In this document: piece after piece, positions 1 to 59,780 of the stretch
Layout: each line of letters opens with the position of its first letter
Numbering within the stretch: position 1 is the first letter of the stretch
DNA from: Eledone cirrhosa
Lineage: Eukaryota
Assembly: GCA_964016885.1 (NCBI GenBank)
Contig: OZ024750.1
Location: 4,712,001 to 4,776,000 of the forward strand
Reading direction: 5' to 3'
DNA length: 64,000 bases
Program-made: the position numbers and the translations under genes
The notes under the pieces: generated by a model
What the model saw: the letters and a program-made list of their open reading frames with translations, nothing else
Told to the model about the DNA's origin: nothing
Databases searched by the model: none

Positions 1-436
1 TTACCATATTTCTAATGAAATACATAACCCATTCGTTTAAATTAGCTGAATATATATATATATATAGGAAAATGTTTAACCCCGACGGCAGAGTTCAAGC
101 CGTTTCGACGGCTAATTCTGGACTGAAATAGCCGTCGAAACGGCTTGAGCTCTGCCGTCGGGGTTAAACATTTTCCTATTACCCACTCTACTACCCTAAG
201 TATTGAGTACTGGTGCCTTATGGTCCATCTGGTTCCTTCCCACACTTCCTTTGTTATATATATATATATAATTGGAAGGATTTAATAAAATAACTTTTTT
301 TAAGCTGGCTGGCGTTTGAAATAAAAGGTTCATACATAATGGAAGGTTTTAATATAAACATCAACACTTTAAACGAGCAGATTTACATCGTTAGACCAGG
401 GTTGGTTTCAGGTAAGTTGGTATCAAAAAGGTTTAA
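1..436. mobile_element. piggyBac-type MITE family B (left end cut by window), interrupted by a palindromic element
   Basis: ttaccatatttctaatgaaa...tatcaaaaaggtttaa matches the ends of the copy at 13722-14224; related internal pieces near 5290-5620, 51250-51400, 60140-60230 and 62330-62532. Confidence 0.6.
64..256 (+). mobile_element. Palindromic Penelope-like short element with the 3' half of a hammerhead (GAAA-cggc..gccg-UC)
   Basis: Near-perfect inverted repeat 64-179, (TA)n on both sides; related copies at about 31830-31990 and 27055-27170. Confidence 0.6.
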
Positions 437-1391
437 TTTAGATGAATTTCACAAAAGACAAAATAGAGATCCATTATGTGGTCATTCAACCTGCTAGAAA
501 TAACAACCACACAATCCCCTACTTACCCGTATATTAAATAAGGCAAGGACACATCGGTGATGTAGTCCTACAAATGACAGGATGGTCGCGACTGAAACGC
601 TTATGATCAGATCATTTAGTGGATCAGGTTTGACCTGGGGCTAAACCACATCATTATAGTAATACATTTTTATCACACACACACATTAAATCCATATGTA
701 CATAATTATTACACATGTGTGTATATATATGTGCATAACAGTTTATTTCAATACTGATAATGTCCTTTTTTCTCTCTCTCACTCTCAAATATAATGCCCT
801 ATATAAAATACACACACGCACTATACGAGCACACAAACGCATATAATCATATGTTCACACACACACGCACAAGCATATATATATATATACCCACATACGC
901 ACACAGAGATAGATAGATAGACAGATAGATAGATAGATAGATATATTTCTTTATTAGCCACAAGGGCGCACAAGAAAAGGCGACAATACAAAGACATGCC
1001 GGGGATTTTACATACAGTCGTGTAAAAAATATAAAAACAAATAGATAGATAGATACATAGACAGATAGAGAGAGAGATAATTACATCAGCAAAATTGCAA
1101 AGGAAAGAGAGAGAGAGATAAGGAGAGTTCCTGCCTTGTTGTTGCCTAACTCTTGTTGATTATGTTCCCGTTGATATATATATAAAAGGGGTTAGCTAGT
1201 ATATTGATTAAGTGTGATTGTATTCCCTCCTCTCGTTTTTTTTTTATGTGGGGTGGGGGGTTACTAGCTTGTTTGTTGTGTGACATATTATTTAATAAGA
1301 GGTAAACCCGATGTAATAAAAGAAACATTTTTTTAGTTTGTTGTCCAAGCAATTAACACTTACTAGACTCCGCTGGTTGTTACTGTAGTAA

Positions 1392-1519
1392 AAATTATAG
1401 TAAACATGTAAGAATAGATTTTCTGTAAGCTTTATATATATATATATATATATATATATATATATATATATATTTATAAAGCTTACAGAAAATCTATTCT
1501 TACATGTTTACTATAATTT
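1392..1519. repeat. Perfect ~45-bp inverted repeat flanking a (TA)n tract
   Basis: aaattatagtaaacatgtaagaatagattttctgtaagctttata ... tataaagcttacagaaaatctattcttacatgtttactataattt. Confidence 0.9.
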
Positions 1520-3782
1520 ATATATATATATATACGCATGCTTCTGTGCGTGTGTGTATATATATATACACATACATATGTATGTATGTGTGTGTGTGTG
1601 ACTAGTGCTCCACACTTCTAGGTGTGTGTGTGAGTGAATGCATATATATATATATATATATATATATATATATATATATATATATATTGAAGCTTTCAAA
1701 AGAGCCTTATTTCACTCACTGGGAAAGTATATAGTAAATATTTTGCATTATAAACTTGATCAGTAAAATTTTCTGCAAGCCTTATATACACGCGCATGCA
1801 TTTACTTTATATATATATATATATATATATATATATATATATATATATATATATATAATGAACCTTTAAAGGAGACATGTTCCGTTCACTGAGTGTATTA
1901 TATATAGTAAATATTTTGTTATTTGAACATATACGAGTATATTCCGCAAGCTATATACACACGCGCACACTTGTGCTTGTGTATATAGTGAACCTTTAAA
2001 AAGGATCCTTGTTTCAATCACTGAGTGAGTGTATAGTAAATATTTTAAGTCTGTGTGTGTATAGTATATTATCGAGTAAACATATAGTGGAGTTGTGCTA
2101 TACACATACAAATGTCCTTATACAATAGTGGATTCTTAGGCATTTTATAATCGAATAGTTATATATATAGTTTAAATGTGTGTGCAACATGTATGCAACG
2201 TGTATGTATATATATATACATGTATAATATATATACACAAAGCATATAGCAAACAGAACATATATATATATATATATATATATATATATATATATATATA
2301 TATATATATCAAACAAACGTGTATGTAATATATATATATATTTGCTTGTGCTTTTGTATAACAAAACACCATGCATGTAGTGTGTGGATTTTCATATTTT
2401 ATCGTTCAATAATTTGCGGTTAAATCGTAAGAAATAAAAAGCCGGTGCTAAAATAGAATGAAAAGTTGTAAAAGAGAAAGAACGACAATGTATTGATGGT
2501 GTTAGTTGATAATTGATACAACAAAGAGGAAGATTATATATATATATATTAAAGAAAACACAAGGTTTCCCCTACCTGAGTTAGGAACTCGAAGCGACGA
2601 GCAGGTTCCCTCAGCTAAGCCATAATGTTTTGCAATTGTTGGTAAATTGGGGTATCCAGTAATGTGATCTGCATGGTCAGTATTCTTGTGCCCTTCTCCA
2701 TGTGTCCACACATTAATCTAACAGGCTTAGCATTCTTTCTGCCTTACTAGATCTCAGCTTTCGATTCTTTAGCAAGGACAAGAAAGAGAAGTCGGCCGTA
2801 TGAAGTAATACCAACACATTTTACTTGCTTTCCCTTTTTTCGCTCTCTCACTCTTACACACACTCTCTCTCTCTCTGTCGCTCTCGCACAAACCTACTTC
2901 CTTTCTTTTACAGCACCCCCTCTCTCTCTATGTATATATTTTCGTACACTCACTAACACTTACTCTTTCTATTTCCCTCGCTTAGATTGTTCTATCTTAC
3001 TATCTCTCTGTTTTCTTCCCTTACATTGCACTAATAACTTAGTATCTCTCACTTAAATTGCACTAATAATTTTCTATCTCTATCTCTTTCGCTAATAACT
3101 CCTATCTCTCCATTTTTCTCACTAATAACTCCCTATCTCTCTCACTAAAAACTCCCTATCTCTCTATTTTCCTCACTAATAACTCTCTATCTCTATATTT
3201 CCCTCACTAATAACTCTCTATCTCTCTCTTTCCCATTCCATGTGTCGAGTTCTAACAATCACTAACACACAGCTTTCATATGATGTATGCTAGTGTTTAG
3301 ATATATAATAACTGCTAGGCATTCATGGGAAAGCCTCTCTCTTTCTCTCTCTCCCTCACATACGGTCTATATCTCTCTCTCACACCCACTCTGTCTATCT
3401 CACTCTCCCTCTCTTTCTCTCACTCTTCTCTCTATCTTGCTCGTTCTTTGTCTCTCCTTTTTTTCTTCTTTTCACTTTCTAACAGTGGCAATCATTCCTT
3501 CTTTGTCCCAGTGTAACATTCGATCTGCTAGAAATAGCAGCCAGACTTCCTCCTTGTGCAACACTCGTATTTACACAGAGTTTCTACATGGTTGCTCAAC
3601 CTGGTAGAAATAGCAGCTAAATCTTCTTCAAAAGCTTCAGATCTTGGACACTATTTGAAAAAAGAAAAAAAAAAAGACGCGATGGTCACAGATGGAATGC
3701 CTATTGATCGATCATCATAGATCTACTTGGTGAGAGCCAGCCTAGGGTTAAACAACAACACCTACTTACTAACATAGATTAG

Positions 3783-57632: not shown

Positions 57633-57873
57633 AAACGATAAACAGTTACTTTAGATCATCGCAATTTATTTTATTATACGTATTTCGAAGATGTAAGGCT
57701 TATGTATAACATCACCCAAAACATGGGATGGTGTAAAGCAAATCTCTTGTTTATTATTATTATTATTATAAAACTACGGTTAAACATATACAGTCAAGTG
57801 TTTGAAATCTGTTATATATAAGTCAGCTGATTCTAAAGCAACTGACTCGTTTTCATTGAACAAATATATATAT

Positions 57874-59369
57874 CATCATCATCATCATCATCATCACCGT
57901 TTTACGTCTGTTCTTCCACGTTAGCATGGGTTAGACGGGTTGTCCTGTTGTGGGCAGTGTCTGGTCGGCTGACCATGCCTTGCTCATACAGGAACTGATT
58001 TGGCTTGATTTCTACAGCTGGATGCCCTTCCTTACACCAACCTCATTTACAGTGAGTGCTGGGTGCTTTTTCGTGGCGCCTACACGTCCACTTTACAGTG
58101 TGGGCTGGGTGTTTTTTTGCCGTGGCACCTCCACGACCACCTTGCCGTGGGGGGTGTGGGGGCATATTGTCTATATGCTTCAGCTTGTACCCATGGGAGG
58201 TCGGGTACTCTGTATTACTGCGTGACGCCAGAGGTCACGGTCGTGTGTCATTGCCTTTGAGAGGTGTAATTGGGTACGGTCGGCTTTTATCACCTCATCC
58301 CAGGTCATCTTGGGTCTCCCCACTCCGCGGTTTCCATCGACTTCTAGTGCTCTGCACCTTTTTATGCAGCTGTCATCCTTCATACGCATCACATGTCCAT
58401 ACCAGCGCAACCGCCTCTCCTGCACACAGCATTTGATTCCTCTTATGCTCAGTCTCTCTCTCAATTCATTTATGCTTTGTCGTTCACGTATATTACTGTT
58501 ACACATCCATCGGAGCATGCAGGCTTCGTTTCTCTCTAATCTACGCAAGTCTTCCACCTTCAGCGCCCAGGTCTCACTACCATGCAACATCGCTGTTCGG
58601 ATACACGCATCATACAGTCTGCCTTTCATTCTGAGGGAGAAGCCTTTTGCAGCTAGCAGTGGTAGTAGTTCCCTAAACTTCTTCCATCTCGTTCTTACCC
58701 TAGTTATTGTACTTTCTGAACACCCACATCTGCTGCTAATTCACTTACCTAGATAGCAGAAGCTGTCTACTGTTTCTACAGAGCCCTCCCAGAGATTGGT
58801 GGTACTTGTTTACTGTGGCTGTTTGCTGCTTGCTGTCCCAGCACAGCTGCTGCATGTGAAGCCTACATTCTTACTTAAGCTTCCTGAGATCCCGCTACAT
58901 CTCTTGTGTACCCATTGTTTGCATTTGGGGCAGAGAATGGAGTTCCTACCTACACCTTTCCTACATACTGAGCAAGGCCATTTCCCTGAGGGGATCTGGG
59001 TTCTGTTTTCTCGTCTACTTACAAGGACCTTAGTCTTTGTCATGTCGACTTTGAGACCCTGTCTTTCTAGTCCCTGCTTCCAAGTTTGGAATTTATTCTC
59101 TAGTTCTACCATAGATTCAGCTATAAGTGCGAGGTCATCAGCATACAGGAGTTCCCATGGGCATCCGGTCTTAAACTCCTCCGTTATTGCCTGCAGGACT
59201 ATGATGAACAGGAGGGGGCTAAGAACAGAGCCCTGGTGGACCCCAACCTGTACGCTAAATTCCTCGCTATACTCATTACTAATCCTAACTTTGCGGACTG
59301 CTCCCCTATACATGGCTTGTACCGCTTTCACAAGCCATTCATCTACTCCTAGTTTTCTAAGAGCCCACC
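57874..59369 (-). mobile_element. 5'-truncated RTE-clade LINE (RT C-terminal half, Cys-rich finger, 3' UTR, (GAT)n tail); disrupted
   Basis: GVHQGSVLSPLLF, LLYADDLAL, FCYLG, LHGSETW, RRLRWYGHVMR and GRPK motifs; in-frame stop at 58810-58812 and a frameshift near 58742; (TA)n on both sides. Confidence 0.95.
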
Positions 59370-59608
59370 ATATATATATATATATATATATATATATATA
59401 TATATATATATATATATATATATATATATATATATATATATATATATATATATATATATATAAATGAAAGTTATCGAAAGTATTGTAGCAAGAAATATCT
59501 ATATATATATATAGATAGATATTATATATATATATATGTTAAGTATTTCCGAAGAAAAAGCAAAGGAAAAAAGAGTGCTCTATGTATAAAACAGAGCTAT
59601 TTAATTAG

Positions 59609-59780
59609 AAAGTGAACAACACAATATATAACTACTCCATTACCAAAGGTTTAGGAACCTAGACAACACTAACATACGTCTAGTTCGCTCATCTGATGAG
59701 CAACCTAGACGTATGTTAATATTGTCTAGCGTCCTGAAACCTTTGGTAATGGAGTAGTTATATATTGTGTTGTTCACTTT
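59609..59780 (+). mobile_element. Palindromic Penelope-like element centred on a hammerhead core
   Basis: About 85-bp inverted arms meeting at gctcatc/tgatgagc; cau-CUGAUGA-(cuagac..gucuag stem)-GAAA-cc-uuu-gg-UA-aug at 59690-59751. Confidence 0.65.

Follow-up and report, generated by a model that had tools for sequence, protein, structure and literature searches.

The short palindromic elements in a 64,000-nt window of the Eledone cirrhosa genome (GenBank GCA_964016885.1, contig OZ024750.1, positions 4,712,001 to 4,776,000, the whole stretch analysed here) are probably insertions of Penelope-like elements (PLEs) with extreme 5' truncation, likely produced by reverse transcriptase (RT) starting in the 5' pLTR of a capped mRNA. 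Continuity with Hydra-type open reading frames (ORFs) identifies families A, C and E, as judged from their sequence, as being of PLE origin. Families B, D and F, which have PLE-type ends and share the tail hairpin, are likely to be 5'-truncated PLE insertions as well. The fold-point of the palindromes likely corresponds to the capped start of the element RNA, where the hammerhead begins, and not to the ribozyme cut site.

Elements of the window and their host gene

Six families (A–F) of elements of 100–300 bp were located in (TA)n tracts. First-look searches of the genome gave 1,289–5,681 candidates per family. All elements named in an earlier, sequence-only reading of the window were present where it had placed them, and its picture of a dense and diverse set of hammerhead-bearing, Penelope-related short (TA)n inserts was right. 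The features were as follows.

67–254, plus strand: family A stub, pLTR of a Hydra-type PLE, with the GAAA–stem III–UC half of a hammerhead only; inverted arm 67–118, junction at about 119–124, direct copy to 176 (the no-tail end point), tail 177–254.
185–208, plus strand: bulged tail hairpin of family A, beginning 8 nt past the no-tail end point; present in the MFE fold, z −1.36, not significant alone.
26222–26521, minus strand: family B, 3' end of a 1.9-kb non-coding PLE-like unit, with a minimal hammerhead (core from 26322) whose GAAA is mutated and a 40-bp tandem duplicate at 26482–26521.
26538–26752, minus strand: family D, 5'-truncated and without tail, with a complete minimal hammerhead at 26588–26662 (long helix II).
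27055–27172, minus strand: divergent subfamily of A, direct copy without inverted arm.
31627–31827, minus strand: family C stub; direct copy and tail 31755–31627, inverted arm 31761–31827.
31832–31988, plus strand: divergent subfamily of A, palindromic stub with tail.
32013–32225, plus strand: family E stub, pLTR of a second Hydra-type PLE; inverted arm 32013–32070, direct copy from 32074 with tail; CAGAAGA core cut by the junction.
47474–47615, minus strand: family C stub, most of the hammerhead gone from the direct arm.
48509–62788, minus strand: host gene PAWR, not part of the elements; five coding exons found (62788–62663, 56486–56448, 53447–52890, 52248–52144, 48607–48509).
55688–55763, plus strand: family C tail remnant in a PAWR intron, absent from the sequence-only reading.
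56845–56885, minus strand: short E-like remnant, recognized by eye only; BLAST with a long E copy did not recover it.
56973–57150, plus strand: family C stub with a complete type I hammerhead; inverted arm 56973–57015, direct copy 57018–57150; helix I from 57018, core 57023–57029, predicted cut after 57061.
59538–59787, minus strand: family F stub; direct copy with tail, inverted arm 59692–59787, junction within CUGA.

Several copies had been assigned to PAWR introns. Those at 56845, 56976 and 59609 share one intron, and the rest of the named copies fall outside the coding span that was identified. The palindromic form was confirmed for A, C, E and F and is lacking in the B and D copies of the window. 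TA-rich flanks were confirmed, 14 of 22 hand-set element ends lying within 10 nt of an alternating T/A run of at least 8 bases, compared with 9.4% of random positions (p ~6e-10). Insertion into (TA)n was found for families A, C and E. By BLAST, the families were mutually unrelated, as had been claimed. A tail hairpin, read by eye, is however common to them and their origin is therefore not unrelated. A MITE or DNA transposon was rejected as explanation (arms head to head, tail on one side, continuation into RT ORFs), as were chance palindromes. The repeat search of the window was dominated by microsatellites.

Hammerhead content and linked ORFs

A type I hammerhead (CUGANGA and GAAA boxes, UH cut site, helices I and II) is complete in the window for C and D. 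A strict descriptor (exact core, stem III of at least 4 bp, stem I of at least 4 bp) gave one site in the window, at 57023–57061 in family C; the mean of 30 shuffles was 0.03 and 1/30 reached one site. Looser descriptors applied to the window were not above chance (2 versus 1.97 and 2 versus 1.9), and no hammerhead was among the 150 of 273 matches listed from an Rfam scan of the window. The D hammerhead, complete and minimal, was missed by the strict descriptor because the palindromic form of its stem III is invisible to the descriptor; the usual G–C pair at the foot of its helix II is absent. In B, the minimal hammerhead is intact in copies other than that of the window. Both core boxes of F are found in the window, and longer F copies have a 6-bp helix I that includes G–U pairs. 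The E core reads CAGAAGA instead of CUGANGA (U4 replaced by A). No CUGANGA was found in A, full-length ORF-linked copies included. Where the earlier statement had each family carry all or part of the core, C and D have it complete, B and F fit it with small defects, E has a variant and A one half. Stem covariation in C (20 rows, two mis-cut rows left out) gave 91% of cells paired and four double-change cells (4/500 shuffles), probably from one subfamily event. For D, 96.5% of cells were paired, with two double-change cells (54/500 shuffles).

Family A was found at the 3' end of one RT and GIY-YIG ORF in 29 of 30 copies, the exception (L250) stopping just short, and family E at the 3' end of a second ORF in 15/15 copies. 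A also stands in front of the ORF in L277 and L284, and C in front of a Hydra-type ORF start in L357 and L150. The pLTR thus occurs both after and before the ORF, E being linked at the EN end only and C at the ORF start only. The link to PLE RT/GIY-YIG ORFs that the sequence-only reading had raised was in this way recovered for A, C and E. Its class of non-autonomous ribozyme retroelements was not: most stubs are truncated ends of protein-coding Hydra-clade PLEs and form no separate class of non-autonomous retrozymes.

The motifs DKT, RWR, CxCx5C, CxxC and CxH were read by eye in the A ORF, for comparison with a Hydra-clade definition by DKT, RWK, a CxCx5C linker, CxxC and CxH, and the EN of E is 47% identical to that of the A ORF. 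Homologues numbered 935, the best 120 of the 935 having 37–55% identity. Pfam matches were weak (GIY-YIG E 0.029, RVT_1 E 0.032), and a further Pfam search recognized neither the Hydra ORF nor two homologues. From ORF architecture, motifs and homology, A, C and E would belong to the Hydra clade. A pLTR with an optional tail, and tandem and inverted 5'-truncated copies, were found for these three families. No ORF was found in the 1.9-kb unit of B, nor within ~1.5 kb upstream of D in 20 long copies. Since unrelated inserts accumulate in TA tracts, the PLE fragments beside copies in L046, L049, L164, L170, L172 and L355 were not taken to be linked. B alone resembles a truly non-autonomous unit.

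Junctions, tails and the likely RNA start

Breakpoints were placed on copies selected with the tail only, because whole-palindrome queries bias junctions toward the window copy; the own copy was left out. Templates were single-locus sequences with SNPs, so that the values of 3 for A and 12 for F are maxima. Helix I of the hammerhead has its first base at position +1 in C and E. The 5' ends of tail-selected copies fell at +1 to +19 in 21/29 for A and at −2 to +13 in 19/29 for C. Those of E clustered poorly (15/29 ran upstream, 7/29 were at +3 to +16), and those of F were spread (12/29 at −1 to +14), one copy, L318, starting at predicted cut site +1. Arms ending at −2 to −10 made up 16/103 for A and 12/76 for E when copies were unselected. 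None of the 87 tail-selected A, C and E copies started at cut site +1, and cleavage-defined breakpoints were rejected. Family A, without the core, clustered as tightly. The palindrome centre had been described as at or next to CUGA; this was borne out in the tail-only samples of A and C and was weaker in E and F. The breakpoint coincides, as had been proposed, with a part of the ribozyme, but it is the 5' part and not the cut site. The link is best read as positional, helix I beginning at the likely transcription start.

Other features were found around +1. A TATA box at −30 to −24 was present in C, in 19–21 of 21 ungapped long copies per column (21/30 loci aligned without gaps); TATA-like runs in A and E were weak only. 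An extra G was found beside 20/30 arms ending at +1, compared with 29/152 at other ends; about half of the unexplained-G rows could derive from the partner arm, and by hand ~10 clear G remained versus ~8 non-G. In public contigs, from runs that may be of the assembly's own sample, the commonest 5' loose end of A was exactly +1 (50 and 54 contigs), the first loose letter being G on the element strand, and in X1, X2 and X4 the joints of C led back to +1 with a single intervening G. Summed contig depth, which is not copy number, rose ~7-fold (A) and ~18-fold (C) across +1.

The stubs might instead be self-propagating non-autonomous retrozymes, transcribed, cut by the hammerhead (as a dimer), perhaps circularized and re-inserted, so that cleavage sets the breakpoint. 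Their numbers far exceed those of ORF-linked copies, stub subfamilies exist, the 5' end of the 1.9-kb B unit repeats its 3' end, rare head-to-tail joints of 169–171 nt occur in C, and retrozymes are derived from pLTRs (bioRxiv 2026.07.22.740005). Yet junctions vary from copy to copy, so each palindrome was made at insertion and not inherited. Starts at the cut site are lacking in the 87 copies of A, C and E given above, the stubs are without a TATA box, family A behaves in the same way without a catalytic core, and the copies are arranged head to head and not in tandem. This explanation was considered improbable.

A second unlikely explanation is that the folded hammerhead, or a protein bound to it, makes RT stall or fall off, and that ends cluster there regardless of the true 5' end of the RNA. 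The ends are indeed distributed over +1 to +19 and not at one base, and those of C and E overlap helix I and the core. However, RT arriving from the 3' side should halt where it first meets the structure, at its 3' foot close to the cut site, and not beyond the whole of it. Stalling would not predict the sharp +1 edge, the extra G or the TATA spacing, and the hammerheads fold weakly (z −1.3 to +0.8).

At the 3' side, copies end at two fixed points, with or without a tail of 65–80 nt, flush with (TA)n. As a rule, the direct arm extends to the end point with tail and the inverted arm stops at the one without. In A, B and C, a second hairpin was found beyond the end of the tail. The tail hairpins are not significant singly, except that of F (z −2.46), and for C and D the MFE gives other tail structures. 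The hairpin can also be seen in Hydra consensus sequences of coral and sea cucumber. In L185, L189 and L194, one arm derives from one A subfamily and the other arm from another; two templates are therefore needed, and fold-back of a single strand cannot give them. The same element and RNA start could be combined with an inverted arm made by fold-back self-priming of one cDNA or from an antisense template, as proposed for rotifer Penelope, or by later DNA rearrangement. Arms are of the same subfamily in most copies, many junctions have a 1–4 nt overlap, and inverted-junction palindromes are read as self-priming in the part of PMC3846280 drawn on here. Besides the arms of two subfamilies, there is against this the fixed end point of the inverted arm, also used by tail-less direct copies, and the fact that either arm can be the longer one at the junction. 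A single-cDNA or secondary origin of the arm was given little probability.

Reverse transcription from the 5' pLTR of a capped mRNA, the preferred reading, could proceed as follows. Position +1 would be the Pol II start. The (TA)n tract would be cut by the GIY-YIG endonuclease, and two RT molecules would prime on the two broken DNA ends at two internal start sites of the 5' pLTR, each placed by a bulged hairpin 6–9 nt downstream. Both cDNAs would reach the cap within 60–140 nt, often adding one base opposite the cap, and would be joined head to head with the loss of few bases. Longer copies would derive from the 3' pLTR of the same RNA. Insertion would not need ribozyme cutting; the hammerhead at +1 could instead remove the capped first ~45 nt of the transcript. 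It is tentatively proposed, with somewhat more doubt than confidence, that Hydra-clade PLEs have in common a conserved 5' module, in which a TATA box is followed by a start on the first helix I base and then by two bulged hairpins, and that a dimeric RT on the hairpins primes both DNA ends.

Comparison with known systems and significance

In L1, inversion arises from two priming events (twin priming), and full-length ends carry a cap-derived extra 5' G. L1 twin priming, L1Tc and R2 involve another ribozyme and RT class, whereas both priming sites are here fixed, internal and near the 5' end of the RNA. In the part of PMC6765202 drawn on here, L1Tc Pr77 and the R2 5' HDV-like ribozymes likewise lie at the extreme 5' end of a retroelement RNA.

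Hydra-clade PLEs (Craig et al., 2021, PMC8557442), which include Hydra-1_Obim of Octopus bimaculoides, have the same single RT and C-terminal GIY-YIG ORF, the motifs DKT, RW(K/R), CxCx5C, CxxC and CxH, (TA)n targets, a pLTR hammerhead (canonical here in C among the three ORF-linked families), tandem and inverted 5'-truncated copies and an optional tail. By eye, the pLTR sequences of the present families differ from the 3' end of Hydra-1_Obim. The tails are 65–80 nt here and 30–40 in those PLEs. Unlike them, most copies here are stubs of 100–250 bp bounded at +1, the A core is lost and U4 of E is replaced by A. Metazoan PLE minimal hammerheads (Cervera and de la Pena, 2014, PMC4209133) are, in the portion of that study considered, similar in their thousands of single copies per genome, in opposite-strand pairs 100–700 bp apart ascribed to truncated PLEs and in a palindromic stem III (here in B and D). 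C, E and F differ from the hammerheads of that portion by a stem III of 3–4 bp and a larger loop, and it contains no junction map, promoter or cap signature, unlike the present analysis.

In vitro, the Anolis carolinensis PLE Poseidon (Frangieh et al., 2024, PMC11167929) also initiates at two internal sites downstream of the hammerhead, which define the tail, cuts both strands of AT-rich DNA and does not need hammerhead cleavage for insertion. In Poseidon, there is overlap between the hammerhead and the beginning of the ORF, within which RT starts; in the present families, both initiation sites and the ribozyme are located in a 5' UTR of ~180–230 nt. Non-LTR retrozymes (bioRxiv 10.64898/2026.07.22.740005) are similarly short, non-coding, pLTR-derived and provided with a type I hammerhead. 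They are defined by tandem units with at least two hammerheads, whereas copies here are single or head to head; in the window and the loci, no such head-to-tail units were found apart from the rare C joints. Drosophila virilis Penelope has a TATA-less promoter and a start >100 nt before the hammerhead, according to the parts of PMC2377424 and PMC4209133 drawn on here, and the layout described in this work is therefore not universal.

Stubs of this kind can easily be annotated by mistake as MITEs, SINEs or miRNA hairpins; Rfam gave miRNA matches below threshold for them. Both PMC8557442 and PMC11167929 raise the formation of tandem and inverted PLE ends and the role of the hammerhead as open questions. 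In this one genome, thousands of independent junctions constitute a natural map of RT start and stop sites, and this map appears to favour the capped start over the cut site and to indicate a small hairpin by which the RT may be positioned. If the proposal is true, the 5' module and a dimeric RT would account for the tail, for the inverted pLTR and for the masses of solo or opposite-strand hammerheads of animal genomes as abortive copies of mRNA 5' ends, and the hammerhead would be a decapping switch of the element's own mRNA.

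Short element families and their genomic setting

The six families, A to F, comprise TA-flanked elements of 100-300 bp.

Positions of the families in the window
Family A: 64-256, 31830, 27055
Family B: 26245-26520
Family C: 31627, 47474, 56976
Family D: 26588-26662
Family E: 32013, 56845
Family F: 59609

A first look across the 3.0-Gb assembly gave 5681 (C), 2667 (A), 2329 (E), 2244 (D), 2003 (B) and 1289 (F) matches, which are candidates and not copy numbers. Self-BLAST of the masked window placed local inversions at 67-176, 31685-31827, 32021-32134, 56973-57059 and 59602-59787. 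Element ends, set by hand, had a TA run no more than 10 nt away in 14 of 22 cases, versus 9.4% for random positions. The PAWR gene was located on the minus strand as five coding exons spanning 48509-62788; its exon 52890-53447 is coding, with 89-90% identity to octopus PAWR proteins, which marks the host as an octopus. The sequence-only reading had placed several copies in PAWR introns, correctly: 56845, 56976 and 59609 lie within one intron (56486 to 62663).

Other repeats were recorded. Further TA-flanked short families were seen at 26150-26205 and 17942-17977 and, elsewhere in the genome, at loci L150 (minus strand, first 600 bases) and L139. One extra TA-flanked family shares the tail motif described below, so the window may contain additional stubs (short truncated copies) of Penelope-like elements (PLEs). 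Local inverted repeats were also present at 56701-56813, 46505-46697 and 1393-1518, the last flanking a TA tract. An abundant octopus SINE-like repeat forms inverted pairs at 9694-10027 and 57239-57633, the latter centred on a TA tract. The window also holds a 61-bp minisatellite (36375-37650), a 74-bp tandem array (62893-63330) and an RTE-like LINE fragment in a PAWR intron (58180-59360). Stubs of different families directly abut in one TA tract at L010, L063, L088, L090, L096, L104 and L227, and TA tracts thus appear to be repeated landing sites.

Penelope-like origin and hammerhead content

The RT/GIY-YIG reading frames of PLEs to which the sequence-only reading had pointed were found running into A and E at their 3' ends and, as an ORF start, following C, but not upstream of D at 20 loci or in the 1.9-kb unit of B; F was likewise left without an ORF link. 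An A copy picked by its tail (L201) was joined to a frame with RT and GIY-YIG. An ORF-end search gave 30 loci, of which 29 had family A as their terminus, in most cases some 750 bp past the stop, three being offset through indels. These ORF-linked copies stop at either of two fixed 3' positions, the tail point, which includes a 77-nt tail, or the no-tail point, which does not; several carry an inverted 5' copy, and A sequence also stands before the ORF at L277 and L284. The protein has DKT, RWR, CxCx5C, CxxC and CxH motifs, the marks of the Hydra clade of PLEs defined in PMC8557442 (section 11); a protein from a sea cucumber is among its homologues. A second GIY-YIG ORF, whose endonuclease is 47% identical to the first, had E at its end in 15/15 loci, and C continues into a similar ORF start at L357 and L150. 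Family B makes up the 3' terminus of a 1.9-kb unit. The terminal 3' sequence of this unit recurs at its 5' end, and the unit occurs in pairs, both tandem and inverted. No ORF was found in this non-coding unit, a candidate for a true non-autonomous PLE; terminal redundancy at L241 (minus strand, 5790-7840, element orientation) is about 65 bp. Family D extends at least 800 bp upstream, and no upstream ORF was found at 20 loci. Other PLE-type fragments, with differing GIY-YIG and RT, occur near stubs without being linked to them (L046:2561-3112, L170:2669-3256, L164:2-496, L049:1-537).

By eye, each of the six tails has a hairpin that begins 7-9 nt past the no-tail point, in which a 4-bp stem is followed by another stem, with a 2-nt bulge in the 3' strand between them. 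The minimum free energy structure contains this hairpin for A, B, E and F and not for C and D; against shuffles, F alone is notable. Beyond the tail point, A and B have another hairpin of this type, and C has a shorter version. Hydra-2_Amil, Hydra-1_Ajap (twice) and Hydra-2_Ajap have a like arrangement by eye, and the Hydra-2_Ajap tail closely resembles that of F (PMC8557442, sequences in the supplement). The common hairpin, as read by eye, would link families B, D and F with elements of Hydra type. Families A, C and E are very probably ends of PLEs, and B, D and F probably so. As a class the elements are nothing unusual: they are PLE ends, truncated and inverted, and belong to the Hydra clade where tested.

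All or part of a hammerhead core had been proposed for every family. Both core boxes stand in C and D in the window, in F and in other copies of B; the core of E is CAGAAGA, and A keeps GAAA, stem III and UC and lacks CUGANGA even in ORF-linked copies. The strict type I descriptor matched once (57023-57061, family C; shuffle mean 0.03), while looser descriptors on the window were at chance level. In D the minimal hammerhead is complete, its helix II long and its stem III palindromic; other copies of B share this minimal form, GAAA being mutated in the window copy; F has both core boxes and a helix I rich in G-U. Covariation was modest in C (91% paired; four double-change cells, probably one event; 20 rows, two mis-cut rows left out) and in D (96.5% paired, two such cells). 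No hammerhead family folded better as a monomer than shuffled sequence, and no hammerhead was among the Rfam matches listed for the window (150 of 273). In B, a G+C-rich hairpin lies upstream of the hammerhead (26425-26360, minus strand); its loop resembles the GAAA-stem III start of E.

Position of the 5' ends and signals at +1

The 5' end of the direct copy was measured in 29 copies per family, chosen by tail alone to avoid bias in junction position and excluding the family's own copy. Numbering starts, as +1, at the base that opens helix I in C and E, and at the corresponding position in A; cuts are predicted after +41 (A), +45 (C) and +46 (E).

5' ends of direct copies (29 per family)
A: +1 to +19, 21 (including ORF-joined L201); upstream, 3; later, 5
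C: -2 to +13, 19 (including L126, which truly reaches about -22); upstream, 2; later, 8
E: +3 to +16, 7; upstream, 15; later, 7
F: -1 to +14, 12; upstream, 3; later, 14 (one exactly after the predicted cut)

The breakpoint is tied to the ribozyme in position, as the sequence-only reading had it; the cause is likely another. None of these A, C or E copies starts at the cut site. Junctions, where the two arms meet, differ base by base among copies, so that each palindrome must have formed at insertion. Some ORF copies have 3' UTR deletions jumping to the pLTR, the terminal repeat (L201/L247, L248, L379, L390); at L201 the ORF end is joined to +7 of another A subfamily, possibly by template switch.

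In long copies of C there is a CCAAT box as well as a TATA box, the latter at -30 to -24 (21/30 loci, those aligning gap-free). A and E have TTAGT around +1, which we take to be initiator-like, and only weak TATA-like runs. When a cap is copied, the known trace is one more G at the full-length 5' end. A G unexplained by the partner arm followed arms ending at +1 in 20/30 cases versus 29/152 at other ends, although about half of the unexplained-G rows were ambiguous on inspection, leaving about 10 G versus 8 non-G. By eye, helix I of Hydra-1_Ajap is preceded, at a distance of about 32 nt, by a TATA run (PMC8557442, supplement).

A wider sample was taken from contigs of public runs (X1-X4), possibly from the assembly's own sample. 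Among 5' loose ends of the A pLTR, precisely +1 was the most frequent (X1, 50 contigs; X3, 54), the first loose letter being G on the element strand; its 3' loose ends coincided with the tail and no-tail points, and TA came next (176 and 108 contigs, X1). Summed depth, which is not copy number, rose across +1 from 139,000 to 971,000 (A) and from 46,000 to 833,000 (C). In the C pLTR, +169 or +171 was joined to +1 through one intervening G (X1, X2, X4). Such head-to-tail joints, spanning 169-171 nt and carrying the extra G at the return to +1, were observed for L357:1709-1879 in contigs of two samples; they may reflect a third start site or else a tandem unit like that of retrozymes.

Proposed mechanism and relation to earlier work

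As a rule the two arms end at different places, the inverted one at the no-tail point and the direct one at the tail point. Arms match in most copies; at L185, L189 and L194 they come from different A subfamilies, so two RNAs served as templates in a single event. For an Anolis PLE in vitro, PMC11167929 describes cutting of both strands of AT-rich DNA, reverse transcription from two internal sites that define the tail, and a predicted dimer, hammerhead cleavage not being needed. In the mechanism that we consider likely, with a capped start and twin priming, both broken DNA ends would serve as primers at two RT start sites, each placed by a hairpin, and the two cDNAs would run off the cap and be joined head to head.

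Earlier work bears on several of these points. Solo minimal hammerheads by the thousands, and opposite-strand pairs 100-700 bp apart, were ascribed to truncated PLEs (PMC4209133). Inverted pLTRs, tails and palindromic junctions were described and self-priming proposed (PMC3846280). The PMC8557442 supplement already contains a Hydra family from Octopus bimaculoides that prefers (TA)n and has a hammerhead, and tandem retrozymes were derived from pLTRs (bioRxiv 2026.07.22.740005). For O. vulgaris, Penelope-like families were counted, ribozymes going unmentioned in the accessible text (PMC13282606). In mostly open-access literature, neither a description of the tail hairpin nor a connection between PLE junctions and a capped RNA start at helix I was found. 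The novelty, which can be tested, lies in the map, with its start at helix I, its cap signature, two RT start sites that hairpins would place, and the occasional palindrome made from two templates.
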